This document shows positions 1,228 through 57,318 of a DNA stretch of 64,000 nt, piece by piece; positions within the stretch are counted from its first letter, which is position 1, and the number at the start of each line of letters is the position of its first letter. Location of the stretch: assembly GCA_030765235.1 (NCBI GenBank), contig JAVCCW010000029.1, forward strand, positions 219,499 through 283,498, read 5' to 3'. This DNA is from Candidatus Gorgyraea atricola (GTDB lineage Bacteria > Omnitrophota > Gorgyraeia > Gorgyraeales > Gorgyraeaceae). A model generated the notes under the pieces. That model did not search any database. It had not been told where the DNA came from and saw nothing but the letters and a program-made list of their open reading frames with translations. Made by a program: the position numbers and the translations under genes.

Positions 1228-1248
1228 CAGGTAAGAGAGGAAGCTAAA

Positions 1249-2451: not shown

Positions 2452-2505
2452 GAGACAAAACTATGAATTTAGGAGTTATTTGTTTGACAGGAGGCAGTGT
2501 ATTAT

Positions 2506-5493: not shown

Positions 5494-5524
5494 GGTTGTA
5501 ATTATCAATAAGGAGGGAATACTT

Positions 5525-6496: not shown

Positions 6497-6507
6497 AAGG
6501 CATAGAT

Positions 6508-7650
6508 ATGAAAAGATTTATCCCATACGCGAGACAGTCAGTGGACTCTGACGATATAAAAGCGGTTGCAGATGTTCTGAGATCTGATTATCTGACGCAA
6601 GGTCCGAAGGTGCATGAATTTGAAAAAAAGGTAGCGGACTATTGCGGCGCAAAGTATGCCGTAGCTTTGAATTCAGGCACGTCAGCTTTACATGCGGCAT
6701 GTTTTGTATCAGGCATTAAGCAGGGGGATGAGGTCATAACATCACCGATAAGTTTTGCGGCATCAAGCAATTGCGTTTTGTATTGCGGTGGTACGCCGAA
6801 ATTTGTGGATATACTTGAAGATACTATAGCGATAGATCCTTGTGAGATTCAAAAGGCAATAACAAAAAGGACAAAAGCCATCATCCCTGTGGATTTTGCA
6901 GGGCATCCTGCGGAATTGAATGAGATAAAAAGAATTGCTTCTAAGTACGGGCTTGTGGTTATAGAAGACGCTGCCCACGCGTTAGGCGCAGAGTATAGGG
7001 GTAATAAAACAGGCTGTGGAAAATATTCAGATATGACGATTTTGAGTTTTCACGCGGTAAAACATATAACCACAGGCGAAGGCGGAATGGTACTGACCAA
7101 TAGAAAAGACCTGTATGATAAATTGGTCATGTTCAGGACACATGGTATCACACGCGATAAAAAGATGCTGTTAGATAAGAATAAGCCTGAATGGTTTTAT
7201 GAGATGCAGTTTCCCGGTTTTAATTACAGGATTGCGGATATCCAGTGCGCTCTGGGATTGAGCCAGATGGAGAAACTTGATTCTTTTGTGAAAATGCGAA
7301 GAAAGATAGCAGGTTTGTATAAAGAGAGTTTCAGTGATATCAACGATATTACCTGTTTGACTGAGAGGAAATACGCTAAATCGAGCTGGCATATTTTTCC
7401 TGTGTGTATAAAGAGGAATAGGGATATGGTTTTTGACAGGCTCAGGCGCAGAGGCATAGGAGCAAATCTTCATTATATCCCGATCTATCTGCACCCGTAT
7501 TATAAAAAGTTGGGATATAAGAAAGGGCTGTGCCCTAAAGCAGAGGGGTATTATAAAAAAACAATAACCCTGCCTCTCTATCCAGTTATGTCTATTAATC
7601 AGGTTGAAAGAGTAATTAACGCTGTTAAAGATGCTGCAAATAGCTTATGA
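6508..7650 (+). CDS. pseC: DegT/DnrJ/EryC1/StrS-family PLP aminotransferase (PseC/LegC-like sugar 4-aminotransferase)
   Basis: 380 aa. Conserved stretches DYLTQGPKVHEFEKK...ALNSGTSALH...SFHAVKHITTGEGG, with the Lys of AVKHI typical of the PLP site. Confidence 0.8.
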   Translation: MKRFIPYARQSVDSDDIKAVADVLRSDYLTQGPKVHEFEKKVADYCGAKYAVALNSGTSALHAACFVSGIKQGDEVITSPISFAASSNCVLYCGGTPKFVDILEDTIAIDPCEIQKAITKRTKAIIPVDFAGHPAELNEIKRIASKYGLVVIEDAAHALGAEYRGNKTGCGKYSDMTILSFHAVKHITTGEGGMVLTNRKDLYDKLVMFRTHGITRDKKMLLDKNKPEWFYEMQFPGFNYRIADIQCALGLSQMEKLDSFVKMRRKIAGLYKESFSDINDITCLTERKYAKSSWHIFPVCIKRNRDMVFDRLRRRGIGANLHYIPIYLHPYYKKLGYKKGLCPKAEGYYKKTITLPLYPVMSINQVERVINAVKDAANSL

Positions 7651-10109: not shown

Positions 10110-11026
10110 AAATAGTTATTATTACTGAAGGCGGAAGAAACGTAGGATTTGGGCATATAACCCGTTGTTTAGGATTGCGCTCAGAACTTGAGAAGAAAAG
10201 AATAGAAGTTTGTTTCATAATAAATGATGATGTTAACGCAGCAGAAAAGATAAAAGGCAAGAATTTCAAAATATATAAAAATAATGAGGATATATTAAGA
10301 TTAGTTAGAGGATCTGATTGCGCGATAGTCGATTCATATATATTAAACAAAGATGTTTATTTGGAAATCAAGAATTCAGTACGGCTTCTGGTCTCTATAG
10401 ATGACAATAAAAGAATAGAATATCCACCTGGGATGGTTTTGAACGGAGCTGTTTACGCAAAAGACATGGGTTTTATAGAATCAGATGGTATAACTTATTT
10501 ACTTGGTCCGGAATTCATGCCTATGCGGCAGGAATTTGTTAATATAGATAAAAAGAGCACAAAAGAAAACATCGAAAATATCCTTATTTCTTTTGGAGGC
10601 ACTGATTTTAAAAATATGACATCTAAAGTAAAAGATTTTACATCAAAGATATTTCCTGATGCAACTATAAATACAATAGAAGGAGATAAGAAAATCGACT
10701 ATGTTTTAAGACTGATGCAGGAGGCTGATATTGCTATTTCTGCGGGAGGTCAGACCCTTTATGAACTTGCAAGAGTAGGGACTCCTGCTCTTGGTGTGTG
10801 TGTTGCAGATAATCAGCTTAATAATTTAAAAGGGTGGGAAAAGATAGGTTTTTTAAAATTTTGCGGCTGGTATAACTTCGAGAATCTGTTTAAAAATATA
10901 GAAGATGCTTTATTGCATGTCACGAGTAAAGTAGTAAGGAAAGAAATGAAAAAATCAGGGCAGTCCCTTATTGACGGCAGAGGCGCAAAAAGGGTTGCTG
11001 AAAAAATAATAGGAGCATTAAATTGA
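10106..11026 (+). CDS. pseG: PseG/SpsG-like UDP-sugar hydrolase (UDP-2,4-diacetamido-2,4,6-trideoxy-altropyranose hydrolase family)
   Basis: MKIVIITEGGRNVGFGHITRCLGL N-terminus, i.e. the GxGHxxR motif of PseG/SpsG. It lies between the PseF-like and PseI-like genes. ATGA overlap with the upstream gene. Confidence 0.65.
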   Translation: MKIVIITEGGRNVGFGHITRCLGLRSELEKKRIEVCFIINDDVNAAEKIKGKNFKIYKNNEDILRLVRGSDCAIVDSYILNKDVYLEIKNSVRLLVSIDDNKRIEYPPGMVLNGAVYAKDMGFIESDGITYLLGPEFMPMRQEFVNIDKKSTKENIENILISFGGTDFKNMTSKVKDFTSKIFPDATINTIEGDKKIDYVLRLMQEADIAISAGGQTLYELARVGTPALGVCVADNQLNNLKGWEKIGFLKFCGWYNFENLFKNIEDALLHVTSKVVRKEMKKSGQSLIDGRGAKRVAEKIIGALN

Positions 11027-12078
11027 AGACTATTAGAATAGGAAATAGAACCATAGGAGAAGGCCATCCTTGTTTTATTATTGCTGAGGCAGGAAGCAAT
11101 CATGATAGAGAACTGGAGCAGGCATTTAAGCTCATAGATATCGCAAAGGATGCCGGAGCTGATGCCGTTAAATTCCAGACTTACAGCGCCGAGACTCTTT
11201 ATTCCAAGAAGACCCCAAAGCCGGAATATTTAAGGAATAAAAATCTAAGCAGCAGAGATGAAACCTTATGGGATGTGATAAAAAAAATAGAAATGCCCAG
11301 GGAATGGCATATCAAACTTAAACAGTATTGTTTAAAAAGAGACATTATTTTTATGTCAACGCCTTTTGACTTGAAAGCCGTGGATGAGCTTGAGGCCGTG
11401 GATATTTTAGCGTATAAAATAGCTTCTTTTGAGATAACCCACTTGCCTTTGCTCGAGAAAGTTGGAAAAACAGGAAAACCGGTCATCTTGTCAACGGGGA
11501 TGGCCGATATATCTGATATTAAAGATGCTTTAGATATTATTTATAAGACCGGGAATAAACAAGTAGCATTATTACATTGTGCAATAAATTATCCTCCAAG
11601 ATATGAAGATCTGCACCTGAGGGCCATGGATACTATGAAAGAGATTTTTAAAGTGCCTGTAGGATTCTCAGATCATACTTTAGGTATAACTTCTGACATA
11701 GCCGCTGTTGCCAGAGGCGCGTGTATCATAGAGAAGCATTTTACCCTGGACAGAAAACTTCAAGGGCCTGACCATCCGTTTGCTTTGGAACCGCAGGAAC
11801 TGAAAGATATGGTAGGGGCTATAAGGGATACTGAAAAATTTCTCGGTTCTCCTGAAAAGAAAAAGACTGAATCAGAAGAGGAATTATATCGGATAGGGAG
11901 GCGAAGCCTTGTGGCGGCCTGTAATATCCCTAAAGGTGTAAAAATAACCCGTGAGATGCTTGAAGTTAAAAGGCCTGGTTACGGCATAGCGGTAAAATCA
12001 ATGAATGAATTGATAGGACGGGTTGCCGCGAAAAACATAGAAGAAGACGATATTCTGCAATGGGAGATGTTTTCTTAA
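11023..12078 (+). CDS. pseI: N-acetylneuraminate/pseudaminate synthase family (NeuB/PseI)
   Basis: TIGEGHPCFIIAEAGSNH...KFQT match the NeuB-family N-terminus. It starts with TTG at 11023, 7 nt after RBS AGGAG; the protein N-terminus only aligns with this start. Confidence 0.8.
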   Translation: MKTIRIGNRTIGEGHPCFIIAEAGSNHDRELEQAFKLIDIAKDAGADAVKFQTYSAETLYSKKTPKPEYLRNKNLSSRDETLWDVIKKIEMPREWHIKLKQYCLKRDIIFMSTPFDLKAVDELEAVDILAYKIASFEITHLPLLEKVGKTGKPVILSTGMADISDIKDALDIIYKTGNKQVALLHCAINYPPRYEDLHLRAMDTMKEIFKVPVGFSDHTLGITSDIAAVARGACIIEKHFTLDRKLQGPDHPFALEPQELKDMVGAIRDTEKFLGSPEKKKTESEEELYRIGRRSLVAACNIPKGVKITREMLEVKRPGYGIAVKSMNELIGRVAAKNIEEDDILQWEMFS

Positions 12079-12546
12079 ATGACGGATTTAGTGCTTAGAA
12101 AAATAGAACAGTCTGACAGGGAAGATCTTTTTTCGTGGAGAAATGATAAAACCACAAGAGGGATGAGTTTTAATAAAAATTACATAAGCATCGAAAAACA
12201 CAATATATGGTTCGAAAGGGTAATTGCAGATTCTAACAGGGTATTTTATATAGGAGAGATCAAGCCGCATCGAAAAATAGGTGTCATTCGTTTTGATAAG
12301 ACCAAAGAGGGTTGTTATGAGATAAGTATAAATCTGGCATTGCAGTACCGCGGACAAGGATTAGGGAAGGTGTTTATAAGAGAAGCATGCATCAAGCTCA
12401 TAAACGAAAAGACCGTGAAAGAGATCGCTGCTTCAGTAAAGACAGAAAATACTTCTTCTGTGAAATCTTTTAATAATGCAGGTTTTACTAAGATAGAAGA
12501 AAAAAATGGTGTGACAAAGATGCATTTTTCAGGAGAAACAGCATGA
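12079..12546 (+). CDS. pseH: GNAT N-acetyltransferase (PseH-like)
   Basis: 155 aa. Acetyl-CoA binding motif QYRGQGLGK in a GNAT fold. Position directly after the synthase matches the pse/sps operon logic. Confidence 0.65.
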   Translation: MTDLVLRKIEQSDREDLFSWRNDKTTRGMSFNKNYISIEKHNIWFERVIADSNRVFYIGEIKPHRKIGVIRFDKTKEGCYEISINLALQYRGQGLGKVFIREACIKLINEKTVKEIAASVKTENTSSVKSFNNAGFTKIEEKNGVTKMHFSGETA

Positions 12547-12851
12547 TAGGAGTAATAGACTACGGCATGGGGAATATTCAGTCGGTTATAAATGCCTTTG
12601 CTGAAAAGGCAATCGGAAAGATTAGTTATGGCTTGACTATCGCAGAAAGAAAAAGTCGTATTTTTAGACGTTCTTTGTTCGCTGTCAAGGATATCAAAAG
12701 AGGAGAAACTTTTTGTTATGATAATATAAGATCTATCAGGCCTGGCCTCGGCCTTAAACCGAAATATTTAGAATATTTTTTAGACAAATGTGCAAAAAGA
12801 GATATAAAAAGAGGGACACCTTTAAACTGGAATCTTCTGAGGAGAAAATGA
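12543..12851 (+). pseudogene. Chimeric remnant: HisH-like glutamine amidotransferase N-terminus fused in-frame to the C-terminal SAF domain of a NeuB-family synthase
   Basis: The first ~19 aa, MIGVIDYGMGNIQSVINAF, is the canonical HisH/WbuY start. The last ~65 aa, FAVKDIKRGETFCYDNIRSIRPGLGLKPKYLEYFLDK...KRGTPLNWNLL, is the antifreeze-like SAF domain found at the C-terminus of NeuB/PseI/LegI synthases. The ORF is only 102 aa. Confidence 0.5.
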
Positions 12852-14650
12852 AATATAAACAATTAAAAACAATTGCATTCTTTTTGAAAAATTATAAAAG
12901 CTATATTTTTGGCATTTTAATATGCTCCGCATTATACGCTATTTTTGAAGGTTTAAATATAGCAGTTTTATTTCCTATTATAAATTCTGTAATAAAAGAC
13001 GGTATGGCCACAGGAGAAGGGTCTAAGATCATACAGTTTCTTAATTTACTAATATCTGTCGTACCTGCCAAAGATACATTTATATCAGCTTGTATTATTG
13101 TGGTAGCCATCGTAATTTTAAAAAATATATTCAGGTATTTATATATGGGGTTAAACGCCTTTGCAAGTTATAAAATTTGGGATGATGTTCAAAAGAGATT
13201 ATTTTATAATTATATAAACGCTGATTACAGGTATTTTTTAGGGCATAAGCAGGGCGAGATTGTGTATAGGGTTTTTAGCGCTCCTTCGGAATTGGGCAGC
13301 GTTTTAAAGCTTATACCACAGTTAGCCACTGAGATATTAAAGATTTTTTTCATAATTATGATATTATTTTCTATGTCATTTCCAGTAAGCTGCGCTGTAG
13401 TTATTATCGGAGGAATTTTTTACTTTTTTACTAGGAATATTTCCAGAAAGATTTCATATTCTATAGGCATAGGACGCGTAAAGGCAACAGAAGAACAGAG
13501 TATTTTGTTAAACGAGATGATAAACGGCATAAAGCAGATAAAGCTATTTTTAGGCGAAAGAAGATGGATATCCGGATTTCATGGGGCGATGAATAAGTAT
13601 TTTAAATTAGCGAAAAAGGATACTCTATGGATTAACATGCCTGTAAGCGCGTTAGAGATATTCGCAATCAGCGCATTAGGCATATCTTTAATAATCGTAA
13701 AGGAATTTTCTCCTCAGAGTTTGGTTTCGAATTTGCCTCTTCTTGGCGTTTTTGCCTATGCATTCCAAAGAGTTATGCCATCCTTGAGTCTTATAACAAG
13801 TATGAAAATGCAGATCATGGGCAGTCTCGCTGTATTTGAAACACTTTATTCAGTAAGCAACGAGAAGATGACATATTTAGAAGATGGCACAAGATGCATG
13901 AGTTCATTTAATGAGAAAATAGAATTTCGTAGTGTTTCTTTTTCATATCCGGACCGGTCAGAAGTATTAAAAGATATTTCTGTGTCTTTTGACAAGAATA
14001 GATGCATAGCCATAGTCGGCCAGTCTGGTTCCGGCAAAACGACCATAGTGAATTTACTTGCGAGGCTGTTTGACCCTACAAAAGGGGCTATTTTAGTCGA
14101 TGGTGTTGACCTCAGAGAATATAAAAAGACTACCTGGCTAAGCAGGATTGGTTTTGTAAGCCAGGATACATTTATATTTCATGCGTCCGTTAAAGAAAAT
14201 ATAATATTTGGATTTGAAGGAGCAAAAGAAGAAGATGTTATAAAGTCTGCAATGATATCAAATGCGCATGATTTTATTATGAAGCTTCCTGATGGATATG
14301 ATACAGTTGTCGGAGAGAAAGGCATGAAGTTATCAGGAGGAGAACAGCAGCGCCTTTCTATAGCAAGGGCTATATTGCGGAATCCTCAGATCTTGATATT
14401 TGATGAAGCCACCAGCGCTCTGGACAATATGTCACAATCGTTGATACAGGGTTCTATAAATAAGATAGTGAAGGATCATACGGTTATTTTAATAGCTCAT
14501 AGGTTAAGTACCATTGTTAATGCCGATAAAATAGTTGTTTTGGATAATGGGATAGTCAAGGAAGAAGGAAATCATTCTGAATTGATAAACAAAAGAGGGT
14601 ATTATTCAAAATTATATAAAAGAGAAGACGATTGTATTCCTGCAACATAA
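12848..14650 (+). CDS. ABC exporter, fused permease-ATPase (MsbA/PglK-like; candidate lipid-linked glycan flippase)
   Basis: N-terminal 6-TM region, then Walker A GQSGSGKTT, signature LSGGEQQR and Walker B ILIFDEATSALD. ATG at 12848 follows GGAG and overlaps the upstream stop. Confidence 0.85.
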   Translation: MKYKQLKTIAFFLKNYKSYIFGILICSALYAIFEGLNIAVLFPIINSVIKDGMATGEGSKIIQFLNLLISVVPAKDTFISACIIVVAIVILKNIFRYLYMGLNAFASYKIWDDVQKRLFYNYINADYRYFLGHKQGEIVYRVFSAPSELGSVLKLIPQLATEILKIFFIIMILFSMSFPVSCAVVIIGGIFYFFTRNISRKISYSIGIGRVKATEEQSILLNEMINGIKQIKLFLGERRWISGFHGAMNKYFKLAKKDTLWINMPVSALEIFAISALGISLIIVKEFSPQSLVSNLPLLGVFAYAFQRVMPSLSLITSMKMQIMGSLAVFETLYSVSNEKMTYLEDGTRCMSSFNEKIEFRSVSFSYPDRSEVLKDISVSFDKNRCIAIVGQSGSGKTTIVNLLARLFDPTKGAILVDGVDLREYKKTTWLSRIGFVSQDTFIFHASVKENIIFGFEGAKEEDVIKSAMISNAHDFIMKLPDGYDTVVGEKGMKLSGGEQQRLSIARAILRNPQILIFDEATSALDNMSQSLIQGSINKIVKDHTVILIAHRLSTIVNADKIVVLDNGIVKEEGNHSELINKRGYYSKLYKREDDCIPAT

Positions 14651-14669: not shown

Positions 14670-15443
14670 ATGAAAAATCTGAAAGAAAGATTAAGGAACG
14701 GCGAAATGGTTATCGGGACATGGAACGGCATACCGTCGGCTTCGGTCGTAAATGCAATAGCTTCAAGCGGAGTAGATTTTATAGTCATTGATTCTGAACA
14801 TGGCCCGGTCAGCGTAGAAAAGGCCGAAGACCTTGTAAGGGCATGTGAAGCATGCGGAGTGGATTCGATTATTCGGGTTTCCTCGAATAGCGCCGATCTT
14901 ATTTTAAGAGCGCTTGATATAGGGACTAAAGGAGTTCAGGTCCCCCATGTTTCTACTAAAGAAGAAGCAGAGCATGTTGTCAGATGTTCGAAATATTATC
15001 CCGAAGGAGAAAGAGGGTATTCCCCTTTTACAAAAGCAGGTAATTATGGGATCAAATCTTCGGGTCATGCAAAAAGATCTAACGAAAACACCACGGTAGT
15101 TCTTAATATAGAAGGTTCCGAAGGATTGAAAAACATTAAGGATATAGCTAGTGTTCGTGGAATAGATGTAATATTTATAGGACCATACGATCTTTCGCAG
15201 TCGTTAGGAAAACCTGGAGAGGTAAATGATCCAGAAGTTATTAAGGGTATCCGTGAAAGCGTTAAAATAACTAAAAATAAAGGCGTTGCCTGCGGTTCAT
15301 TTGCTTGTGACATGAAATACATGGAATTGCTGATCGATTGCGGAGTGCAATATGTGACATATATGGTAGATTCTGCTTTGATTGCTGCTACTTATAAAGA
15401 TATAGTAAACGTATTCAATGCAAAAAAAGAAATAGAGGGGTAA
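14670..15443 (+). CDS. HpcH/HpaI-family class II (pyruvate) aldolase
   Basis: 257 aa. MKNLKERLRNGEMVIGTW...DFIVIDSEHGP matches the 2-keto-3-deoxy-acid aldolase family (HpcH/GarL/YfaU). Confidence 0.75.
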   Translation: MKNLKERLRNGEMVIGTWNGIPSASVVNAIASSGVDFIVIDSEHGPVSVEKAEDLVRACEACGVDSIIRVSSNSADLILRALDIGTKGVQVPHVSTKEEAEHVVRCSKYYPEGERGYSPFTKAGNYGIKSSGHAKRSNENTTVVLNIEGSEGLKNIKDIASVRGIDVIFIGPYDLSQSLGKPGEVNDPEVIKGIRESVKITKNKGVACGSFACDMKYMELLIDCGVQYVTYMVDSALIAATYKDIVNVFNAKKEIEG

Positions 15444-17174
15444 ATGAGCGATATTAAAACTCATGCTTTTGAGATATTGGATTGTACCATAAGAGACGGT
15501 GGCTATTTAAACAACTGGGATTTTGACAGAAAAGTGGTTAAAGAGCTTTGCCGCAATCTTTCCAGGACAGGTGTGGATATTATTGAAATCGGATTCAGAA
15601 ATAAGCCAAAGGCCGGTACGGGATTATGGTATTCTGTCCCTGAGGATGTTATCAATGATTTGTTCAAGGATGTTTCAGGAATAAAAGTATCATTGATGGT
15701 TGATTGCGACAAATGCGACTTATCTCTTATTCCGCAGTCAAAGCATAGTTTTGTAAATATGTACAGGGTGGCATGTCATAAGGATAAGATATTAGAGGCA
15801 ATCGATATTTGCCGGAAGATCAAAAAAAGAGGATATGAAGTTTCTATTCAGCTAATGGGGATTGTGGGTTATACGGAGGAAGATTTTTCTTTTATAAAGA
15901 AGCCTATTTCAGAATCATCAATTGACTATCTTTATTTTGCCGATAGCTATGGTTCGCTTTTTCCGCGTGATATAGAAAGATATATAGAAAAGTTGAAACC
16001 TCTGAATAAAAAAATAGGTTTTCATGCGCACAATAGTCTCCAGCTTGCTTTTGCCAATACACTGGAGGCGCTTAATTGCGGAGTGGATATAGTAGATGGT
16101 ACTGTATGCGGTATGGGAAGGGGATCAGGTAACCTCCCTATGGAAGTGTTGATAATATACCTTGAGAAAACATTAAGCCGTAAAAAGTACAATTCAATGC
16201 CTGTATTGGATCTTATAGACCGTTATTTTATTGATCTAAAAAACAAGTTGAAATGGGGTTACAGCCTTCCTTACATGTTATCCGGTATATTCGAGGTCCA
16301 TCCGAGCTATGCCAAGCAATTGATAGATTATCATGAATACAATGTAGACGATATGGTAAAAGTCTTTGAGGTCGTAAAAGGACTTGCGCCAGTGGGATTT
16401 AAAAAAGACATAATGGATAAAATTATATCAAGCGGTTTTGTAAGCTCTTTTGGTAAATCGGAAAATCCAGACCATGATACAGAAGATAATCTACGAATAC
16501 AGCCACCTCTTTATAGAAACAGGCATGAGGGAAAGGATTTTTTGATACTTGCTAATGGTCCCAGCCTTAAAGAGCATAAAAAAGAAATAGATGAATTTAT
16601 AGAAAAATATAATCCTGTAGTTATGGGTGCTAATTATTTAGGTGGATTGTTTAAGCCGCATTATCATGCATTTAGCAATAAGAAACGATTTATCAATTAT
16701 GTTGAACATGTTGATGTGGATTCAAAGCTTCTGATATCCGGCAGTTTCGAGGATGATTTTATAAAAGACTATACGAATATGGAATATGAAAGTATCGCGC
16801 ATTTTAGTGGCACCTCGGATAATTTCAGGATAGAAGATGGCGTAATCAATTCAAATTGCAGGACCGTGTCGATATTGTTGACGGCAGTCGCTATTGTTAT
16901 GGGCGCAAAAAGAATATTCATAGCAGGAATGGATGGATATAAGAGTAAAGAACATTTTCTTTCAAAAAATGTACATTTTTATAAAGAATCCGAGGAAGCT
17001 GATAATTTTAAACTATTGATCGAAAAGCACAATTGGAATGAAAAACTACTTAGCCAGATCAATTCGTTTTTAATTGAAAACAACAAAGAAGGGCTTCATA
17101 TTATAACCCCTTCAAGTCATAGTTATTTTTACAGCAGTATATATAATTGGATAAAACAATATGACAAGGTTTGA
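15444..17174 (+). CDS. Fusion: HMGL-like DRE-TIM metallolyase domain + GT42/MptE(DUF115)-like sialyltransferase-fold domain
   Basis: The N-terminus ILDCTIRDGGYLNNWDF...HAHNSLQLAFANTLEAL is typical of the HMGL-like/4-hydroxy-2-oxovalerate aldolase family. The C-terminal segment DFLILANGPSLKE...RTVSILLTAVAIVMGAKRIFIAGMDGY resembles Campylobacter Cst-II/Maf-type GT42 domains (IIAGNGPSLKE...AVAIALGYKEIYLSGIDFY). Confidence 0.55.
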   Translation: MSDIKTHAFEILDCTIRDGGYLNNWDFDRKVVKELCRNLSRTGVDIIEIGFRNKPKAGTGLWYSVPEDVINDLFKDVSGIKVSLMVDCDKCDLSLIPQSKHSFVNMYRVACHKDKILEAIDICRKIKKRGYEVSIQLMGIVGYTEEDFSFIKKPISESSIDYLYFADSYGSLFPRDIERYIEKLKPLNKKIGFHAHNSLQLAFANTLEALNCGVDIVDGTVCGMGRGSGNLPMEVLIIYLEKTLSRKKYNSMPVLDLIDRYFIDLKNKLKWGYSLPYMLSGIFEVHPSYAKQLIDYHEYNVDDMVKVFEVVKGLAPVGFKKDIMDKIISSGFVSSFGKSENPDHDTEDNLRIQPPLYRNRHEGKDFLILANGPSLKEHKKEIDEFIEKYNPVVMGANYLGGLFKPHYHAFSNKKRFINYVEHVDVDSKLLISGSFEDDFIKDYTNMEYESIAHFSGTSDNFRIEDGVINSNCRTVSILLTAVAIVMGAKRIFIAGMDGYKSKEHFLSKNVHFYKESEEADNFKLLIEKHNWNEKLLSQINSFLIENNKEGLHIITPSSHSYFYSSIYNWIKQYDKV

Positions 17175-18162
17175 AATAGCACAAGAGCTGTTAAACAAAA
17201 AGAAATTCTTTAAGCTTGTTTGCGGCGCAGGTAACGAAGACGCAAAGGAAGTCAGGAAGATTGTTTTTGTCTATGCGCTTGCAGGCGCCAAATGCATGGA
17301 TGTCTCTGCCAATGTGGATGTTGTTAAACATGCAGCCATAGGTATTCAGGATGCATTTGATTATGCAGGCAAGATAGGAAGGCAGTTATTGATACGTCCT
17401 TTTATCAATGTGAGCATAGGAATGAGGGGAGACCCGCATATTAGGAAAGCGATGATTACAGATAAGTGCGTTAAATGCAGAGTATGTATTGCAGAGTGCC
17501 CTACAAATGCCATAGATGATGACTTTAAGATCATAGAGGCCAGGTGCATAGGATGCGGAAGTTGCGAGTCAGCGTGTAGCTATAACGCTATAAAATTCTA
17601 CCATAAGAATAAGGACTTAAAAGCTATTCTGGAGGAATGCAGGGAATGCGGGGTTGAGCAGATGGAGTTGCACGCTGCAGTGCCTGATACAAGGTCTATA
17701 TTCGACGAATGGAAAATGATAAACAATATAATAAAAGATAATTATGTAAGCATGTGCTTGGACCGCCTGCATTTATCCGATTCTGCGTTGAAACGCAGGA
17801 TAAAAAATGCAAAGTCTATATCAGGCAACAGGCTTATAGTGCAGGCAGACGGCGTGCCCATGAGTGGAAGCAAGGATGATTTCAATACCACTCTGCAGGC
17901 GGTTGCCATTGCGGATATAATCATGAAACAAAGGTTAGATGTAAAGGTTTTACTGTCAGGCGGTACAAATAGTTTGACTACAAAATTAGCGGATATGAGC
18001 GGCGTTGCATATAATGGTGTCTCTGTCGGAACGTTTGCCAGAAATGTTATAAAGGAATTGATCGGGGAAGAAGATTTTATGAAAAAGGACGATAAAGTGA
18101 GAGAGGCGGTTAATACCGCGCATACATTAGTAAGGAGTAATATCGGAGAGGTAGTCTGGTAA
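17161..18162 (+). CDS. Protein with 2x[4Fe-4S] ferredoxin-type domain inserted in an alpha/beta (possibly TIM-like) scaffold
   Basis: Two CxxCxxCxxxCP-type motifs, CVKCRVCIAECP and CIGCGSCESAC. The flanking regions have no recognisable family. Confidence 0.55.
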   Translation: MTRFEIAQELLNKKKFFKLVCGAGNEDAKEVRKIVFVYALAGAKCMDVSANVDVVKHAAIGIQDAFDYAGKIGRQLLIRPFINVSIGMRGDPHIRKAMITDKCVKCRVCIAECPTNAIDDDFKIIEARCIGCGSCESACSYNAIKFYHKNKDLKAILEECRECGVEQMELHAAVPDTRSIFDEWKMINNIIKDNYVSMCLDRLHLSDSALKRRIKNAKSISGNRLIVQADGVPMSGSKDDFNTTLQAVAIADIIMKQRLDVKVLLSGGTNSLTTKLADMSGVAYNGVSVGTFARNVIKELIGEEDFMKKDDKVREAVNTAHTLVRSNIGEVVW

Positions 18163-18926
18163 TGGTGAATATTGCGTTTGGCAATAAGGTAATCAATGAT
18201 ATTGAGTTATTTGTATTCGATAAGGATGGCACACTCATTGATTTATATAATTACTGGTATTACATGATTGAGATGCGGGCAAAAGATTTGTGTTCTTTTT
18301 ACAAGTTGGATGAGGAGCCGCATAAGAATAGTCTGATGTCTGAGATGGGGATTAATTTGGAAAAGAGAAGGCTGAAACCAGAAGGTCCTGTGGGCATTTT
18401 ACCCAGGGCGATTGTGCAAAAGGCTGCAGAGGATTATCTCGTTAAGCTTGACTACCAGGATGTCTCCAGGGTTTGCTTTGATATATTTAAGAAAGTCGAT
18501 GATAAGTCTTTATTCTTATTGGACAAACTTATAGTCCCTATCAAAGGTGCTATGGAACTTTTAAAGAATATAAAAGAGAAAAAGACTATGGTCGCCATAG
18601 CGACAACTGATAAAACAGAGAGAGCTGAACTTGCTGTAAAATTTTTAAATATAGGAAACTTAGTGGATATTGTCGTGGGCGAAGATAAGGTGAAAAATTC
18701 AAAACCAGCACCAGATATGTTGATGTATATACTGAAGAAACTTGATGTATCTCCGCGCAATTCTATCATGGTAGGAGATGCGAACACTGATGTCCTGATG
18801 GGCAAAAACGCAAACCTAAAGGCCTCAATAGGCGTCTGCACTGGGCTGACAAATAAGGATAAATTGCTAGAAATAACCCCTTATGTAGTTGATGATGTAT
18901 CGAAGATAAAAATATATGACAGCTAA
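18162..18926 (+). CDS. HAD-superfamily hydrolase (phosphatase, subfamily IA-like)
   Basis: Motif I VFDKDGTL and motif IV VGDANTDVLMG. Confidence 0.7.
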   Translation: MVNIAFGNKVINDIELFVFDKDGTLIDLYNYWYYMIEMRAKDLCSFYKLDEEPHKNSLMSEMGINLEKRRLKPEGPVGILPRAIVQKAAEDYLVKLDYQDVSRVCFDIFKKVDDKSLFLLDKLIVPIKGAMELLKNIKEKKTMVAIATTDKTERAELAVKFLNIGNLVDIVVGEDKVKNSKPAPDMLMYILKKLDVSPRNSIMVGDANTDVLMGKNANLKASIGVCTGLTNKDKLLEITPYVVDDVSKIKIYDS

Positions 18927-20469
18927 TAAAGAGATAATACTTGTTAATTTACCTCCGGCTAGGAATTATAAGTATGAGAATTCCGGTTCTCTGTATCCTG
19001 CTACCGGGATAATGGTAATAGGTGCGATATTAAAGAAAAGAAAGTTTTCAGTAAAGATCGTTGACGGCGCCTTGATTCAGGAATATGAAAAAAGGGTTTT
19101 GGAGAGCATATCCGAGAGGACTATGTTCGTGGGGTTTTCAGCCATGACTTCCCAGATAGTCATGGGATATGAGCTGGCAAAGAAGATAAAAGAGAAATGG
19201 CCTCGTTTATATATAGTATTTGGCGGTGTGCACTCAACCCTGTATCCTGAACAAACGGTCTCTAATCCGTATATTGATATTGCCGTGATCAACGAAGGGT
19301 CTAGAACTGTTTTAGAGATCATAGAGCATATTGAAGGACATGTCCAATTGGAGGCAATAAAAGGCATATCGTTTTGTGATTCAGAGGGCAATGTTAAGAT
19401 TAATATACCCAGGGATTTGGATGATATATCAGAGATTCCCCATTTTGATTTTGAACTCTTGGATTTGCCGAGATATCTTAATGCCAGAAGCGTATATGAA
19501 AGAGAATTAAACCTTGATGGCAGTAAGAATATACGACTAATGCCTATTCTTACTGGCTTAGGCTGTTGTTTTAGGTGCGCCTTTTGCATAAACGTGATTT
19601 TAAAAAGGCATTACAGAGCGCGTTCTGCCGCATCCATTGTCGAAGAGATCAAAAGATTGCAGTCCAGATATGGCGCAAATGCCTTTTTATTCCTGGACGA
19701 AGATTTTTGTATTAACAAAAAAAGACTGGCAGACTTCATTAAACTGGCAAAGGACGAGAATATCAAGTTTTTGGCAAGGATATGGGCCAGGGTCTCTTAT
19801 TTCAGGCAGGATTCTTTCAAGAATATTTTGCCGGATATGGAAAAGATCGGTATAAAATCTATTGCAATGGGGGCAGAAAGCGGATCACAGAAGATGCTGG
19901 ATTATTTACATAAGGATATAAAATGCGAAGACATAAAGAACGCTGCTGTGGAGCTTTCCAAATTCAATATAACCCCGAGATTTTCCTTTATGACAGGGAT
20001 GGACGGAGAAAATAAAGATGATACCATCTCCACGTACAGGCTTTGCGGAGAACTATTAAAGATCAATCCCATCACTGACATTGCAGGCCCTTTCACTTTC
20101 CGTTATTATCCAGGTTCTCCCATATTTAACCAGGGTATGAAGAGGTTTAATATAAGCTTAAGTAAATCTATAGAAGACTGGAAGGATTCCTTGAATGATG
20201 ACGGATCTTTGATTGTTGACACCACCCGGCTTATCTGGCCCGGGTTTTCCAAATACAGCGAATCAATGAATAGTTATATCAATATTTATTTGCATAAGTT
20301 GAATAGGCTGTCATTGCGTAATAGATTTTTGGTCAAGATTATCAGAAAACTAGTCTTGTGGCGATTGATGCACGGAGAACACTGTTATGCTATAGATTAT
20401 TACACCCTTCGTTTATTGGCAAAACTTGAAACTTTTTTACTAAAACTGTATCGTAGTATTTATAAATGA
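18916..20469 (+). CDS. B12-binding radical SAM enzyme (class B radical SAM, candidate C-methyltransferase or rearrangement enzyme)
   Basis: N-terminal B12-binding-like domain (IVFGGVHSTLYPEQ), then radical SAM cluster motif CCFRCAFC (CxxxCxxC). Confidence 0.8.
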   Translation: MTANKEIILVNLPPARNYKYENSGSLYPATGIMVIGAILKKRKFSVKIVDGALIQEYEKRVLESISERTMFVGFSAMTSQIVMGYELAKKIKEKWPRLYIVFGGVHSTLYPEQTVSNPYIDIAVINEGSRTVLEIIEHIEGHVQLEAIKGISFCDSEGNVKINIPRDLDDISEIPHFDFELLDLPRYLNARSVYERELNLDGSKNIRLMPILTGLGCCFRCAFCINVILKRHYRARSAASIVEEIKRLQSRYGANAFLFLDEDFCINKKRLADFIKLAKDENIKFLARIWARVSYFRQDSFKNILPDMEKIGIKSIAMGAESGSQKMLDYLHKDIKCEDIKNAAVELSKFNITPRFSFMTGMDGENKDDTISTYRLCGELLKINPITDIAGPFTFRYYPGSPIFNQGMKRFNISLSKSIEDWKDSLNDDGSLIVDTTRLIWPGFSKYSESMNSYINIYLHKLNRLSLRNRFLVKIIRKLVLWRLMHGEHCYAIDYYTLRLLAKLETFLLKLYRSIYK

Positions 20470-21203
20470 GAACAATAGGAATTATACCTTCGCGATTGCA
20501 GTCATCACGTCTTCCTGACAAAGCCCTTATTGACATAGAAGGCTTGCCTATGATAGTCCATGTGTTTAAGAGGGCGCAGTTGGCTTCTTCCTTAAACGAG
20601 GTATTTGTGGCTACTGATAACAAGGAGATTCATGATATTGTGCTTAAATACGGTGGCAAGGCAATAATGACTTCATCCAAGCACGAGACCGGAACGGATC
20701 GTATAGCTGAGGCAGTTAGTGATATGGACGTAGATATAGTGGTCAATATCCAGGGAGATGAAGCGCTTTTAAATCCCGAGCATGTGGATAGCGCCGTAAG
20801 GCCTCTTAGAGAAGATAAGGATGTGCAGATTTCTGTACTTGTCGCGCCTTATTCAATAAAGAATTCAAAATCAGACATAAAGGCTATCCTTGATCTGAAT
20901 TGCAATATTTTATACTGCTCAAGAGCGGACTTACCGAGTGACGCGCGCACAGAAATAAAAACAATGTGGAAGATGTGTTTTATAGTGCCTTTTCGCAAGA
21001 ATTTTCTGCTAAAGATTGCTTCCTGGGACCAGACACCTTTGGAAAAGATTGAGTTTAATGAATACCTTAGGATATTAGAACATGGGTATAACATAAAGGC
21101 AGTGCCTGTTGAAAATGCGCATATAAGCGTTGATACTCCGCAGGACCTTATAAAGGTCAGGAAATTAATGAAATCTGACAAGATAAAAGAAAAGTACTTC
21201 TAA
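20466..21203 (+). CDS. 3-deoxy-manno-octulosonate cytidylyltransferase family (KdsB/KpsU-like CMP-ulosonic acid synthetase)
   Basis: MRTIGIIPSRLQSSRLPDKALIDIEGLPMIVHV...VVNIQGDEALL closely parallels KdsB (IPARYASTRLPGKPL...VNVQGDEP). ATGA overlap with the upstream gene. Confidence 0.8.
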   Translation: MRTIGIIPSRLQSSRLPDKALIDIEGLPMIVHVFKRAQLASSLNEVFVATDNKEIHDIVLKYGGKAIMTSSKHETGTDRIAEAVSDMDVDIVVNIQGDEALLNPEHVDSAVRPLREDKDVQISVLVAPYSIKNSKSDIKAILDLNCNILYCSRADLPSDARTEIKTMWKMCFIVPFRKNFLLKIASWDQTPLEKIEFNEYLRILEHGYNIKAVPVENAHISVDTPQDLIKVRKLMKSDKIKEKYF

Positions 21204-21206
21204 TTA

Positions 21207-22970
21207 ATGAAAAGACTTTTATTGTTAAAAAATCCGGATGATGTATCAAGCAAACTTAATATAAATATGTTTGATTATGTTTTGATAGATCTGGATAATT
21301 TTAATTTAAAAAATATTTTAGACAAAGATGATATTGAAAAAGAATATAAGAATTTTATAGCGTCTATGAGCAGTAATATCTCATCAGATTATTGGTGGGC
21401 AAGTAATTTATCCGAGAAAAATTCTTTTACTTCTAAATTATTTGTCAGGTTATATAAATTAGCGTGCCTCGATGCAAAAATAAAAAAATATAGAAATAAA
21501 GATATTGCGGTCGTGTGTTCAGATTTAGCATTGTCTAAGCAGATAATTTTTAACTACAAGAAGAATTTTGTAGTATCAAATCTCTGCTTTAGTCCTCTGG
21601 AAGCTAATATTAAAGCCTTGTTGTGTAAATTAATTGGAATTTTAGCTCAAATTAAAAAGGCTTGTTACGAATATAAGAATTTATTATTTACAAGGTGTAT
21701 TTTATTTACAAGAAGAACAGCTATTCTCAAGAAAGATGATTATGTAGTCCTCAGAACATGGTGCGATAACCGGAGTTACAAGTCGGGTTCGTACTTCGAC
21801 CCTTATTTTAAAAATCTCCTATCTTTTTTTTCGGGCCAAAAAAGAAACATATTGATATTTGCCGGTATATTGTCTGATTATAGGGATATGATAAAAAAAT
21901 TCAAAGAAGACACAGAGAATATCATTATCCCGTTTAATTTTTACCTCAAAGGCCTTGATATATTTAAATGTGTTTTTAACGTGTATTTTAAGAGACCTTC
22001 AATAAAGGGTAATATTTTTTTCTGTGATTGCAATGTAAAATTTCTTGTTTTCGAGGAGTTGTTACAGGATATGAACGGGACACGTTTTTTCGATGCTCTT
22101 TTACAGTATTATTCGTGCACTAGCTTGACGCGATCTATAAGAATAGAAAGATTTATATATACATTTGAAAATTATGCATGGGAAAAAATGAGCATTTTAG
22201 GATTACGCTATGGTGATCCAAATATCAAAGTATTAGGATTTCAGCATGCTTTTGTTTCAAAAAACAGTTTTAAATATTTTCCGGGTTTCATTGAAAGAGA
22301 TAGAATGCCCCTTCCTAACAAGATTATTACAATGGGAAGGCGGACTTTAGACATAATGAACCGATTAGGTTGTTATCCCGATAATATTTTTTCGGTAGGA
22401 TGTGCGTTACGTCAAAATTACTTGTCTCCATCAAAGCTTTTGCCTCGCAGGACAACCAGAGATATTTTTGTAGCTTTGACTATTACGGTAGAAGATGCCG
22501 TTAAAGTATTGCGCTTTCTTTTTGATTCCGGGTTAGGAAAATATCCGGAAAAATTATACATTAGATTTCATCCTGCGACATGCGTAAATGAAGTTATGAA
22601 AGATTTGGGATTTAAGATGCCGTCCAATTTTATTATTTCAAACAATCTTTCCGTAACTGAGGAAATAGAACGGTGTGGAGTTATTCTATATACTTGGACT
22701 ACTGTATGTCTTGAGGCTTTAAAGATGGGGTGTCCTGCAATATATTTGGACGTTAATTATCCTTTGGAGGTAGATCCTCTTTTTGAATGCAACAGCAAGA
22801 TCAAGGATTCTTGCAGCAATCCGGCTGAACTTAGAACAAGGATAAATAAAATCTTGAATATAGACGATAATTTGTTTTACGAGGAGCTTAGAAAAACACA
22901 GGATTATCTGAAAGATTATTTTGTACCTGTAAGCGAGGATAATATGAAGATTTTTTCCGAGGTTTTATAA
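21207..22970 (+). CDS. Large hypothetical transferase-like protein (GT-B-like, HP motif; candidate ulosonic-acid/polymer transferase)
   Basis: 587 aa. The C-terminal region IRFHPATCVNEV...GVILYTWTTVCLEALKMGCPAIYLD can be aligned with the N-terminal domain of ORF 7647 and with ORF 4321. It lies directly downstream of the KdsB-like gene, like kpsU followed by kpsC/kpsS. Confidence 0.4.
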   Translation: MKRLLLLKNPDDVSSKLNINMFDYVLIDLDNFNLKNILDKDDIEKEYKNFIASMSSNISSDYWWASNLSEKNSFTSKLFVRLYKLACLDAKIKKYRNKDIAVVCSDLALSKQIIFNYKKNFVVSNLCFSPLEANIKALLCKLIGILAQIKKACYEYKNLLFTRCILFTRRTAILKKDDYVVLRTWCDNRSYKSGSYFDPYFKNLLSFFSGQKRNILIFAGILSDYRDMIKKFKEDTENIIIPFNFYLKGLDIFKCVFNVYFKRPSIKGNIFFCDCNVKFLVFEELLQDMNGTRFFDALLQYYSCTSLTRSIRIERFIYTFENYAWEKMSILGLRYGDPNIKVLGFQHAFVSKNSFKYFPGFIERDRMPLPNKIITMGRRTLDIMNRLGCYPDNIFSVGCALRQNYLSPSKLLPRRTTRDIFVALTITVEDAVKVLRFLFDSGLGKYPEKLYIRFHPATCVNEVMKDLGFKMPSNFIISNNLSVTEEIERCGVILYTWTTVCLEALKMGCPAIYLDVNYPLEVDPLFECNSKIKDSCSNPAELRTRINKILNIDDNLFYEELRKTQDYLKDYFVPVSEDNMKIFSEVL

Positions 22971-22972
22971 AA

Positions 22973-24043
22973 ATGACACCAAAAATAACGATATTAATGG
23001 CTGTTTATAACGGTGAGGTTTATTTAAGGCAGTGCATAGACAGTGTCTTAAGCCAGACCTGTAAGGATTTTGAATTTCTTATAGTGGATGACGGTTCTAC
23101 GGATAGCACTCGGGATATAATAAGGTCTTACAGTGACGACAGGATACGTTTGATAGAGAATGAAAGAAATCTAAGCCAGGTAACATCTCTTAATATAGGA
23201 TTGGATCACGCGTCAGGCGAATATATTGCCCGTATAGACGCTGACGATATAATGCTCCCTGATAGGATAGAGAAGCAATATGATTTTTTGAGCAAAAGGC
23301 CTGAAGTTGTGCTTTCGGGGAGCTGGGCAGAGGCAATGGACAGCGAAGGGAAGCATATTGGCATTACAAAATTGCCTGTAAGGAATGAAGAAATAATAGC
23401 TACTATTCTGTTTGGAGAATTTATTCTTGTGCATAGCTCTATAATGTTCAGAAAAAAACCTGTTATGGATATAGGCAAATATAATGAAGCTTTTTCTTTT
23501 ACAGAGGATTATAAGCTGGCTATAGATTTACTGCTGAAGAGACATAAAATCGTTAGCATACCAGATGTGCTTATAAAATACAGGTTGCATGATGATCGTA
23601 TTAGTGTAAGGGACGCAAAGCCGCAAATACAAAGATATATTATTGCCTTGAAACAATTCATAAGACATCTTGTCCCTGATTTTTCAGAGTTGGATAGCGA
23701 GCTATTGTTCAATTTTTTGTTTAACGCAGGCTCAATGAATAAAAGCTATTGGGAGAATGGAGTAACAAAATGTGATATAAGCAGGATTATTATGCTATCG
23801 GATTTATTACTAAAAAACACCTCGAATTATTTTAGTCTAAATAAGAATAAAAATTACTTCATGAAAAGACTTTTTTTTAATAAGGTTTTGAATTTTGCAT
23901 ATCAGAACCGTGATATAAAAAGTAAATTAGCTAAACTTTTATACGCAGAATGCCTTAAAAATTGTTTTTTTATTTTAAATAAACCAAAGTTATATCTATA
24001 CCCTTTCGCGACTTTTTTTTCTCACATTAAAACAAAATTATGA
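22973..24043 (+). CDS. Family 2 glycosyltransferase
   Basis: ITILMAVYNGEVYLRQCIDSVLSQT...FLIVDDGSTD...IARIDADD (GT-A fold DxD). Confidence 0.8.
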   Translation: MTPKITILMAVYNGEVYLRQCIDSVLSQTCKDFEFLIVDDGSTDSTRDIIRSYSDDRIRLIENERNLSQVTSLNIGLDHASGEYIARIDADDIMLPDRIEKQYDFLSKRPEVVLSGSWAEAMDSEGKHIGITKLPVRNEEIIATILFGEFILVHSSIMFRKKPVMDIGKYNEAFSFTEDYKLAIDLLLKRHKIVSIPDVLIKYRLHDDRISVRDAKPQIQRYIIALKQFIRHLVPDFSELDSELLFNFLFNAGSMNKSYWENGVTKCDISRIIMLSDLLLKNTSNYFSLNKNKNYFMKRLFFNKVLNFAYQNRDIKSKLAKLLYAECLKNCFFILNKPKLYLYPFATFFSHIKTKL

Positions 24044-27304: not shown

Positions 27305-28072
27305 TTATTTTTCACCAGAAATTAAAAAACCTGTCGCGAAAAAGCTACATTTTGATAATTTGCCATACTCAAACCTTTTTGCCCAAAAATTGGTAAATAT
27401 TCTTAATATTCTCGTAACAGGATAAGCAAAGACATTTACATTATAATTGACAGATACCAGGCTCTTAAAACCGGCATTAACATATAACCTCTTGGCACTT
27501 TTGAGATCCCATAGTCTTCTTGGTGGTTGATGCAGAGATTTTCCAAAAATTCTTCTTGCTAAATACCTGAATAACATAAGGGATTGTACGGATATATAGT
27601 CTAATGATTGAAAATTCGGAAAGGAAAAGATTAGGCGGCCGCCGATAGGTAGTTTATTGTATAGCCTTTGAATTAATTCTTCTGGGTTATCAAAATATTC
27701 AATAAATCCTAATCCTATCATGATGTCCAGATTATCGGGTAATCGCATCTTTCTTATATCACCAAAAATAAGGCTTACCTCATCTTTATTAATATAATTT
27801 GGATAAATTCTTTTAATCTCATCCAACATTTTTCTTGAGGCATCCAGGCCTATGTATTGACCTCCGGCATCTATCACAAGAGGCATAAGGATCCCGGTTC
27901 CACAGCCTAGGTCAAGAACCTTTTTATTCTGAAAGGAGCATGCTAGAGTTATCGTTTTTTGGAGCCTGACAATAAACGAATAAGCGAGTGGATTTTTGGA
28001 GTTATACAGAGAGTTCCATCGCCCAGCTTTAGCCGAATCTTCAAAATAGGTCAATATTGCATTGTAGTCCAT
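27305..28072 (-). CDS. Class I SAM-dependent methyltransferase
   Basis: Motif I VLDLGCGTGIL. It is the only minus-strand gene, convergent with the upstream operon (9-nt tail-to-tail gap). Confidence 0.75.
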   Translation of the reverse strand: MDYNAILTYFEDSAKAGRWNSLYNSKNPLAYSFIVRLQKTITLACSFQNKKVLDLGCGTGILMPLVIDAGGQYIGLDASRKMLDEIKRIYPNYINKDEVSLIFGDIRKMRLPDNLDIMIGLGFIEYFDNPEELIQRLYNKLPIGGRLIFSFPNFQSLDYISVQSLMLFRYLARRIFGKSLHQPPRRLWDLKSAKRLYVNAGFKSLVSVNYNVNVFAYPVTRILRIFTNFWAKRFEYGKLSKCSFFATGFLISGEK

Positions 28073-57299: not shown

Positions 57300-57318
57300 T
57301 TTAAGGTGATTTTTGGAC

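Follow-up and report, generated by a model that had tools for sequence, protein, structure and literature searches.

To our knowledge, the textbook routes to 3-deoxy-manno-octulosonate (Kdo) and to the sialic, pseudaminic and legionaminic acids all run through synthases of the KdsA or NeuB type, which depend on phosphoenolpyruvate (PEP). The Kdo pathway consists of KdsD, KdsA, KdsC and KdsB, followed by WaaA or KpsS/KpsC as the transferase. Here we describe a set of seven genes, at positions 14670–22970 of a 64,000-nucleotide stretch of DNA (the window) from ‘Ca. Gorgyraea atricola’, a metagenome-assembled genome (MAG) of the Omnitrophota, in which a KdsB-like cytidylyltransferase is encoded together with two aldolases. 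The best-supported conclusion from sequence comparison is that this cassette would belong to the biosynthesis of an ulosonic acid activated with cytidine monophosphate (CMP), and its aldolase-based chemistry would be new to glycobiology. On balance we consider it probable that the cassette forms a self-contained pathway, independent of PEP, for the synthesis, activation and transfer of a 3-deoxy-2-ulosonic acid related to Kdo but distinct from it. The original prediction, made from the sequence of this stretch, had not recognized the combination as a described pathway, and in the published literature that we searched we likewise found no description of the cassette, of its fusion of an aldolase with a DUF115 domain or of a function for TIGR04326 proteins, and no studied member.

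The cassette and its relatives

The seven open reading frames (ORFs) and the gene that follows them are listed here, with lengths in amino acids (aa).

ORF1, 14670..15443, + strand: HpcH/HpaI-family class II (metal-dependent) pyruvate aldolase, 257 aa (Pfam HpcH_HpaI)
ORF2, 15444..17174, + strand: two-domain protein, 576 aa; N-terminal DRE-TIM (HMGL-like, DmpG-like) aldolase (~nt 15468-16193) and C-terminal GT42/Maf (MptE-like, DUF115) nucleotide-sugar-type domain (~nt 16521-17114)
ORF3, 17161..18162, + strand: LdpA-like iron-sulfur (Fe-S) TIM-barrel protein, 333 aa; 2x[4Fe-4S] ferredoxin module (Cys 103-139) inserted in a (beta/alpha)8 barrel
ORF4, 18162..18926, + strand: HAD-IA phosphatase, 254 aa (HAD_2)
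ORF5, 18916..20469, + strand: cobalamin-dependent (class B) radical S-adenosylmethionine (SAM) enzyme, 517 aa (B12-binding and Radical_SAM)
ORF6, 20466..21203, + strand: KdsB/KpsU-like CMP-transferase with an altered sugar pocket, 245 aa (CTP_transf_3)
ORF7, 21207..22970, + strand: protein of GT-B fold, 587 aa (AlphaFold model)
Next gene, 22973..24043, + strand: GT2 glycosyltransferase (Glycos_transf_2, E 2e-37)

All seven ORFs lie on the + strand where they had been predicted, with each named domain confirmed by profile searches, and the distances between them range from −14 to +3 bases, a near-seamless packing with overlaps. We scanned with Pfam all + strand ORFs of the window of at least 100 aa, except a 114-aa ORF (52157-52501) that lies within the span of the 52104-53948 gene; on the minus strand, ORF 27305-28072 alone was scanned. 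As predicted, no Kdo8P synthase/KdsA (DAHP_synth_1), arabinose-5-phosphate isomerase/KdsD (SIS) or KdsC (HAD-IIIA) was found among the scanned ORFs, whose sole HAD protein is ORF4, inside the cassette.

In order to follow the genes in other organisms, we scanned one genome per species, which gave 246 relatives, and took counts from a phmmer census of the best 80 loci. These best 80 all come from MAGs or single-amplified genomes. Their bacterial hosts are Omnitrophota, Planctomycetes (including Brocadia), Elusimicrobia, Desulfobacterota, Nitrospirae, Chloroflexi, Margulis-/Saganbacteria, Gastranaerophilales and members of the candidate phyla radiation (CPR); the archaeal hosts are Methanobacteriota, Hydrothermarchaeota, Altiarchaeota, Micrarchaeota, Thermoplasmatales and Methanosarcinales. 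The Kdo of lipopolysaccharide (LPS) is not expected in archaea.

Homologs of ORF1, ORF2, ORF3, ORF4 and ORF6 occur together in 27 of the 80 loci, spread over many phyla of both bacteria and archaea, and 26 of these also hold a member of the GT-B family of ORF7; the commonest gene order among these complete loci is ORF2-ORF3-ORF4-ORF1-ORF6-GT-B. The gene set is also present in an Elusimicrobia MAG and in TARA ocean contigs, where the HpcH and radical SAM genes are placed differently. A close ortholog of ORF5 is present in 8 of the 27 complete loci, and 10 of the 27 have no B12 radical SAM gene within 10 kb. Because the GT-B family is almost always present and the radical SAM gene is often missing, we take the core of the cassette to be six genes with the radical SAM gene as an accessory. 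Recurrence in such distant phyla argues that the grouping did not arise by chance, and the prediction that the set acts as one functional unit is thereby upheld; the co-occurrence of HpcH aldolase, KdsB and class B radical SAM enzyme, proposed there as a check, held for the first two but not consistently for the third. The genes might instead be mere neighbors in a very large glycan locus, serving no single pathway, as could be argued from a window packed with unrelated glycan genes and three cytidylyltransferases. However, 27 loci from distant bacterial and archaeal phyla, with differing flanks, share these five or six genes in conserved order, and the genes overlap in the window; we give this explanation next to no credence.

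ORF2 homologs are also found without ORF1, ORF3 and ORF4. In most of these simpler loci the ORF2 homolog adjoins, or lies close to, a CTP_transf_3 gene and a ~600-aa gene of the ORF7 family, accompanied by a HAD, a PfkB kinase or a NanA/DHDPS-like gene; across three cassette types, the ORF2-type fusion is the constant neighbor of CTP_transf_3 genes. A capsule-type locus on a plasmid of Leisingera caerulea S216 (NZ_CP081095, 72274-75276; L088, 8986-11988) holds a trio encoding an aldolase-DUF115 fusion, a KdsB-like cytidylyltransferase and a HAD protein. Its products carry generic or automatic names, the cytidylyltransferase being labeled 3-deoxy-manno-octulosonate cytidylyltransferase, and in outline the trio resembles KdsA/KdsB/KdsC with the aldolase fusion in the place of KdsA. 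Plasmid matches in Desulfobaculum and Priestia proved to be stand-alone aldolase domains in other contexts and were set aside.

The first four genes form a block that is separable from the rest. In L021, L081 and L086, where the downstream ~600-aa gene was scanned, a thiamine diphosphate (ThDP)-dependent enzyme (TPP_enzyme_N/M/C) replaces the KdsB-like and GT-B proteins; in L084 a gene of equal size occupies that position, and ORF1-4 are present without a KdsB-like gene in L080 and L085. In L081 (8249-14240) the upstream block runs ORF3-ORF4-ORF2-ORF1 and is followed by the ThDP enzyme, and no HpcH homolog was detected in the upstream blocks of L021 and L086. L021 also encodes a sugar C-methyltransferase-like protein and a zinc alcohol dehydrogenase. 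Since 2-oxo acids are common substrates of ThDP-dependent enzymes, the position of one after the block suggests that ORF1-4 are a separable unit whose product is probably a 2-oxo acid. The ThDP-coupled variants suggest that this 2-oxo acid can also be used in a second way.

Proteins encoded by the cassette

ORF6 belongs, as predicted, to the KdsB/KpsU-like cytidylyltransferases. It matched CTP_transf_3 (E 6e-46), scored 255.5 bits against the 3-deoxy-manno-octulosonate cytidylyltransferase model NF009905 (cut-off 255) and 151.4 bits against TIGR00466 kdsB, just under the cut-off of 155.2, and its top match in the PDB was E. coli KpsU (1GQ9, 150 bits). The loop P[AS]R..S.RLP.K that binds cytidine triphosphate (CTP), QGDE and VDTP are retained in ORF6 and its orthologs, and with them the equivalents of the CTP- and Mg-binding residues R10, K19, Q98/D100 and D225/235. 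The sugar pocket is conserved but altered. The five best solved CMP-Kdo synthetases all have [KR]H[VL]GIY[AG]YR and LEQLR, whereas ORF6 lacks this Kdo-pocket signature of H181, Y185 and LEQLR, reading KMCFIVPFR and NEYLR, and nearly all cassette orthologs read KM[CS]FIV[PA]FR and NEYLR. In E. coli KdsB numbering, the changes in ORF6 are H181 to M, G183 to F and Y185 to V, and the first and last of these make it probable that the substrate is other than Kdo. In a model of E. coli KdsB, Y185 and Q98 hydrogen-bond the C5 hydroxyl of Kdo, and 5-deoxy-Kdo is no substrate of that enzyme (PMC12199768).

In the simpler cassettes, that of Leisingera included, the pocket of the KdsB-like enzymes reads KQVCIY and so keeps the Tyr. 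The hydrophobic pocket thus accompanies the additional HpcH and Fe-S genes, and we speculate that these two enzymes alter the sugar, which would lack a hydroxyl or bear a hydrophobic group at the position contacted by Y185. An alternative is an aldolase-based route to ordinary Kdo, from pyruvate and arabinose or arabinose-5-phosphate, with ORF6 as the normal CMP-Kdo synthetase for a capsule or LPS-like glycan. The NF009905 name, although its score is just at the cut-off, and the capsule enzyme KpsU as the closest solved structure agree with such a route, in which the HAD protein could replace KdsC. We nevertheless regard it as unlikely: residues found in five of five solved synthetases are M and V in nearly all cassette orthologs, with NEYLR for LEQLR; a second aldolase and an Fe-S enzyme would be superfluous for plain Kdo; and the simpler cassettes, with aldolase fusion, HAD and KdsB-like enzyme, have a different pocket.

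We return to an ulosonic acid other than Kdo, and to the enzymes that might build it. ORF1 matched HpcH_HpaI (PF03328, E 2e-36), and its closest PDB structures are the 2-dehydro-3-deoxyglucarate aldolase 4tv5 and YfaU; reading of the sequence and alignment to 4tv5 showed the catalytic residues H44/R69/E148/D174 to be intact. Its scores against the NCBIfam models HpaI, GarL and RhmA (142-175 bits) are below their equivalog cut-offs (369-441), and indeed no aldolase, HAD or radical SAM component of the cassette reaches the NCBIfam cut-off of a characterized equivalog. The aldolase domain of ORF2 (HMGL-like, PF00682, E 4e-26) found as its top PDB match 3dxi, a ‘putative aldolase’ of Bacteroides (167 bits), with DmpG next. 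Residues D13, R17, D18, H194, H196, R226 and N230, among them its metal and enolate residues, are invariant in 82 homologs. ORF2 scored 89.6 bits against TIGR03217 for DmpG-type aldolases (cut-off 286) and had no Pfam match to DmpG_comm, the C-terminus being MptE-like instead; a gene for acetaldehyde dehydrogenase, the DmpF partner, is absent from the seven-gene cassette. Full-length homologs of ORF2 number more than 120, at 53-90% identity, in many phyla. We propose that ORF2 acts as the ulosonate synthase of the cassette.

The C-terminal domain of ORF2 matched MptE-like/DUF115 (PF01973) below threshold (E 9e-7, 29.2 bits; Pfam cut-off 34.6), and its profile found in the PDB CstII-type GT42 sialyltransferases alone, weakly (E ~0.01). 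It carries ANGPS and AGMDGY motifs. In the same weak profile alignment, H529 stands opposite a CstII His that we take to be the catalytic base His188. R473, H529 and N532 are retained in most CMP-coupled cassettes and altered in ThDP-coupled ones (H529 to Y), a pattern that lends some support to a role of the domain with a CMP-sugar. Because the domain occurs in ThDP-coupled cassettes too, it may serve synthesis instead of transfer, for example in a kinase-like manner as in MptE. In a preprint, Maf/DUF115 enzymes are described as able to transfer Kdo (bioRxiv 10.1101/2020.06.03.131540).

ORF4 is a HAD protein (HAD_2, E 4e-25) with an intact D20xD22 motif that passes the curated NCBIfam cut-off of the generic HAD-IA subfamily model TIGR01549 alone and that of no specific model. 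In related loci its homolog always adjoins the gene of the Fe-S protein, and we propose it for the role of KdsC. The Fe-S protein ORF3 has two 4Fe-4S motifs and an LdpA_C domain in Pfam and matched the NCBIfam LdpA model NF045992 (E 8e-44, 150 bits) without reaching the equivalog cut-off of 450; its eight ferredoxin Cys are invariant among homologs. The two clusters of the predicted 2x[4Fe-4S] protein are thus borne out, but the protein is a TIM barrel with a near-invariant putative active site and not a plain ferredoxin. A role as mere reductant for the radical SAM enzyme was rejected, because the 10 of 27 cassettes without a nearby B12 radical SAM gene retain the Fe-S protein with its invariant barrel site. 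A third, 3-Cys cluster in the active site, also considered, was weakened by the loss of C160 in the ThDP-coupled group. Sequence searches of the PDB with ORF3 and ORF5 returned nothing informative.

In ORF5 we found an N-terminal B12-binding domain (PF02310, E 1e-15), a Radical_SAM domain (PF04055, E 2e-18) and an intact cluster motif C218x3C222x2C225, and its best NCBIfam model was BchE (141 bits, cut-off 481). Its place as a member of the pathway, claimed in the original prediction, holds as regards domains and motif but not as regards the core; its distribution makes it an accessory tailoring enzyme, which in ‘Ca. Gorgyraea atricola’ is translationally coupled into the operon and whose step is possibly a C-methylation. 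Fosfomycin biosynthesis includes the methylation of a cytidylylated intermediate by a B12 radical SAM enzyme, and a small CMP-activated phosphonate or acid made in that manner was therefore considered as the product. The two genes do adjoin here, and NCBIfam gave weak matches to P-methyltransferase models and to PhnX-like HADs. However, a PEP mutase is lacking, the match of the HpcH protein to HpaI, GarL and RhmA extends along its full length, many complete cassettes do without the radical SAM gene, and ORF6 is of the KdsB (CTP_transf_3) type, whereas the cytidylyltransferases of phosphonate pathways are, as far as is known, of a different, LicC/PntC-like type. We rejected this highly improbable pathway on the grounds of the missing PEP mutase, the full-length HpaI/GarL-type aldolase and the dispensable radical SAM gene.

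ORF7 has no Pfam match and matches TIGR04326 ‘surface carbohydrate biosynthesis protein’ weakly. Its AlphaFold model (predicted local distance difference test score 93.6) has a GT-B fold with two Rossmann-like domains; glycosyltransferases dominate both structure searches made with it, and Foldseek puts them first. H455-P456 is invariant in 43 homologs, which together with the fold and the presence of the family in nearly every complete locus agrees with the predicted large transferase-like protein with an HP motif. This motif is common in transferases of this kind and is not specific to KpsC/KpsS/WbbB. The predicted analogy to a kpsU-kpsC/S order did not stand: KpsC and KpsS are not among the structure matches listed, which are generic GT-B enzymes instead, ORF7 showed neither a match to the Capsule_synth hidden Markov model nor a specific structural match to KpsC/KpsS/WbbB (GT107/GT99), and fold searches thus leave a KpsC/KpsS-type transferase unsupported.

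The ORF7 family is very divergent (18-840 bits), compared with biosynthetic enzymes at 45-70% identity, and such fast divergence fits an acceptor-specific transferase. We propose that ORF7 is the transferase for the CMP-activated acid. It might alternatively be a NeuC-like hydrolyzing 2-epimerase of nucleoside diphosphate sugars that supplies a free aldose, leaving the GT42-like domain as sole transferase. We hold this to be improbable, given the predominance of glycosyltransferases in both structure searches, a divergence unlike that of a pathway enzyme with a fixed substrate and a HAD phosphatase that implies a phosphorylated intermediate instead of a free aldose. The TIGR04326-like GT-B family to which ORF7 belongs comprises ~6000 clusters at 50% identity, and a TIGR04326 protein has been recorded downstream of neuABC in Herbaspirillum (PMC6679464). 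A GT2 gene follows the ~600-aa gene of the family in L001, L003, L005, L040 and L054, and the GT2 protein is a probable partner in glycan assembly, outside the synthesis of the sugar itself. Distant members of the ORF7 family also occur in other cassettes, in L006 (870-3472, 10001-11776) and L007 (1-2106, 5172-11812), with a CTP_transf_3 gene, a dehydroquinate-synthase-like sugar-phosphate cyclase, a short-chain dehydrogenase/reductase and radical SAM-SPASM enzymes. These cassettes hint at further undescribed CMP-activated compounds.

Proposed pathway and the surrounding locus

In the pathway that we favor, the DRE-TIM domain of ORF2 would join pyruvate to a phosphorylated aldehyde, doing the work of KdsA or NeuB. 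The HpcH aldolase and the Fe-S TIM-barrel enzyme would then make or remodel the acceptor or the product, and one may speculate that they take a hydroxyl off or put a hydrophobic group on. The HAD phosphatase would strip the phosphate as KdsC does. In ‘Ca. Gorgyraea atricola’, the B12 radical SAM enzyme could next add an optional modification, most plausibly a C-methyl group, before the KdsB-like ORF6 forms the CMP-sugar. ORF7, perhaps with the GT42-like domain of ORF2, would finally move the sugar onto a surface glycan, to be extended by the downstream GT2 and GT4 proteins. The genes with their catalytic motifs, the syntenic arrangement, the separable four-gene block, the changed sugar pocket and the GT-B fold come from computation, and from there we infer the substrates, the products, the order of these steps and the need for two aldolases. 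Of the non-canonical ulosonic-acid pathway originally predicted, the unit and its independence of Kdo genes stand; the radical SAM enzyme as part of the core and the KpsC/KpsS analogy do not.

Several points speak against this pathway. The pocket argument draws on two or three residues and on a single model of E. coli KdsB from the literature; the GT42-like domain is present also in ThDP-coupled cassettes, where no CMP-sugar is made nearby; and the need for two pyruvate-type aldolases in one pathway is unexplained.

More tentatively, with a likelihood we place somewhat below even, the DRE-TIM/GT42 fusion would found a third, PEP-independent class of ulosonic-acid synthase. Together with the HpcH aldolase and a new Fe-S enzyme, it would lead to an unknown ulosonic acid, possibly extra-deoxygenated or C-methylated, that is displayed by many uncultured anaerobic bacteria and archaea, including those of DPANN and CPR type, while the four-enzyme block would also feed ThDP enzymes making other unusual sugars. 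If the favored pathway is right, building such an acid from pyruvate by aldolases, with an Fe-S enzyme taking part, would amount to a new biosynthetic solution, and an undescribed acidic sugar would exist at the surface of many uncultured lineages, namely Omnitrophota, Elusimicrobia, Planctomycetes (including the anammox Brocadia), Desulfobacterota, Margulisbacteria, Altiarchaeota, Micrarchaeota and others. Three large ‘hypothetical’ families would gain a function, namely the aldolase-DUF115 fusion, the non-cyanobacterial LdpA-like proteins and the ~600-aa TIGR04326-like GT-B proteins, and the automatic naming of the cytidylyltransferase as CMP-Kdo synthetase would be a systematic mis-annotation. 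The three-gene module on the Leisingera caerulea plasmid, in a cultured host, would make the idea of an aldolase as synthase tractable.

The whole 64-kb window is one glycan locus. Its long genes all lie on the + strand save 27305-28072, its GC skew is uniformly positive (the cumulative skew rises monotonically) and its GC content is 33-41%. The region 58-12546 holds the pseudaminic-acid genes PseB, PseC and PseG, a NeuB/PseI-type synthase and a GNAT protein, as well as NeuC-like, PtmE-like (CBS and nucleotidyltransferase) and NeuA-like genes; counting ORF6, the window encodes three different CMP-transferases. The NeuB protein (11023-12078) scores above the NeuB_NnaB cut-off and just under that of PseI, in a Pse context. 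Between PseC and PseG lies an 820-aa fusion (7647-10109) with a C-terminal CTP_transf_3/PseF-like domain, whose first ~580 aa gave a weak match to TIGR04417 ‘PFTS motif’ only. Homology of ORF7 to this N-terminus was considered and dropped, since no sequence similarity was detectable. A 102-aa ORF (12543-12851) with a SAF domain only, which overlaps the start of an ABC exporter gene (12788-14650), could be what is left of a second NeuB-type synthase, or else a small SAF protein in its own right.

The window also holds, besides that exporter, a Wzx-type flippase, many GT2 and GT4 glycosyltransferases and methyltransferases. Its downstream region (37116-59346) has heavy tailoring capacity: two AsnB-like amidotransferases (37116-38939 and 49127-51031), a radical SAM-SPASM enzyme (41073-42107), five SAM methyltransferases between 40435 and 47399, a second B12 radical SAM enzyme (55887-57299) and a GT2/radical SAM fusion (57313-59346).

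Comparison with known systems

The cyanobacterial circadian-input protein LdpA, to which we know of no enzymatic reaction assigned, shares with ORF3 a barrel with an inserted 2x[4Fe-4S] module. ORF3 differs in its score (150 bits, against an LdpA cut-off of 450) and in its setting, a sugar pathway in non-photosynthetic organisms. Fom1/Fom3 of fosfomycin biosynthesis resemble the cassette in having a cobalamin radical SAM gene beside a cytidylyltransferase gene, an adjacency that by analogy suggests tailoring of, or before, a CMP-linked intermediate. In contrast to that system, the cassette has no PEP mutase or phosphonate genes, its cytidylyltransferase is of another family, and its radical SAM enzyme is dispensable.

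The catabolic aldolases DmpG/DmpF and HpaI/GarL/RhmA share their folds and their metal and enolate residues with the aldolases of the cassette, and the expected chemistry is therefore the interconversion of pyruvate plus an aldehyde with a 4-hydroxy-2-oxo acid. However, the setting of the cassette enzymes is biosynthetic, they have neither a DmpF partner nor a DmpG communication domain, and they score far below the equivalog cut-offs. The NeuC/NeuB/NeuA pathways with GT42/Maf enzymes have in common with the cassette a CMP-activated acidic keto-sugar, a surface-glycan locus and a GT42/Maf-like domain, and Pse and Leg/Neu-like genes are present in the window itself. These nonulosonic acid pathways differ from the cassette, which has no NeuB-type synthase, aminotransferase or acetyltransferase and has its GT42-like domain fused to an aldolase.

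The Kdo pathway differs from the cassette in several respects. The cassette lacks a PEP-dependent KdsA and an SIS isomerase, and the C-C bond would be formed by pyruvate class II aldolases (HpcH and DRE-TIM); the HAD protein is of type IA, whereas KdsC is of type IIIA; H181 and Y185 are replaced; and the putative transferase is a GT-B protein of generic type, without detectable likeness to KpsC/KpsS or WaaA. ORF6 is nevertheless a true homolog, at 150 bits to KpsU, and the logic of the two pathways would be the same, from an ulosonic acid phosphate through dephosphorylation by a HAD enzyme and KdsB-type activation with CMP to transfer.

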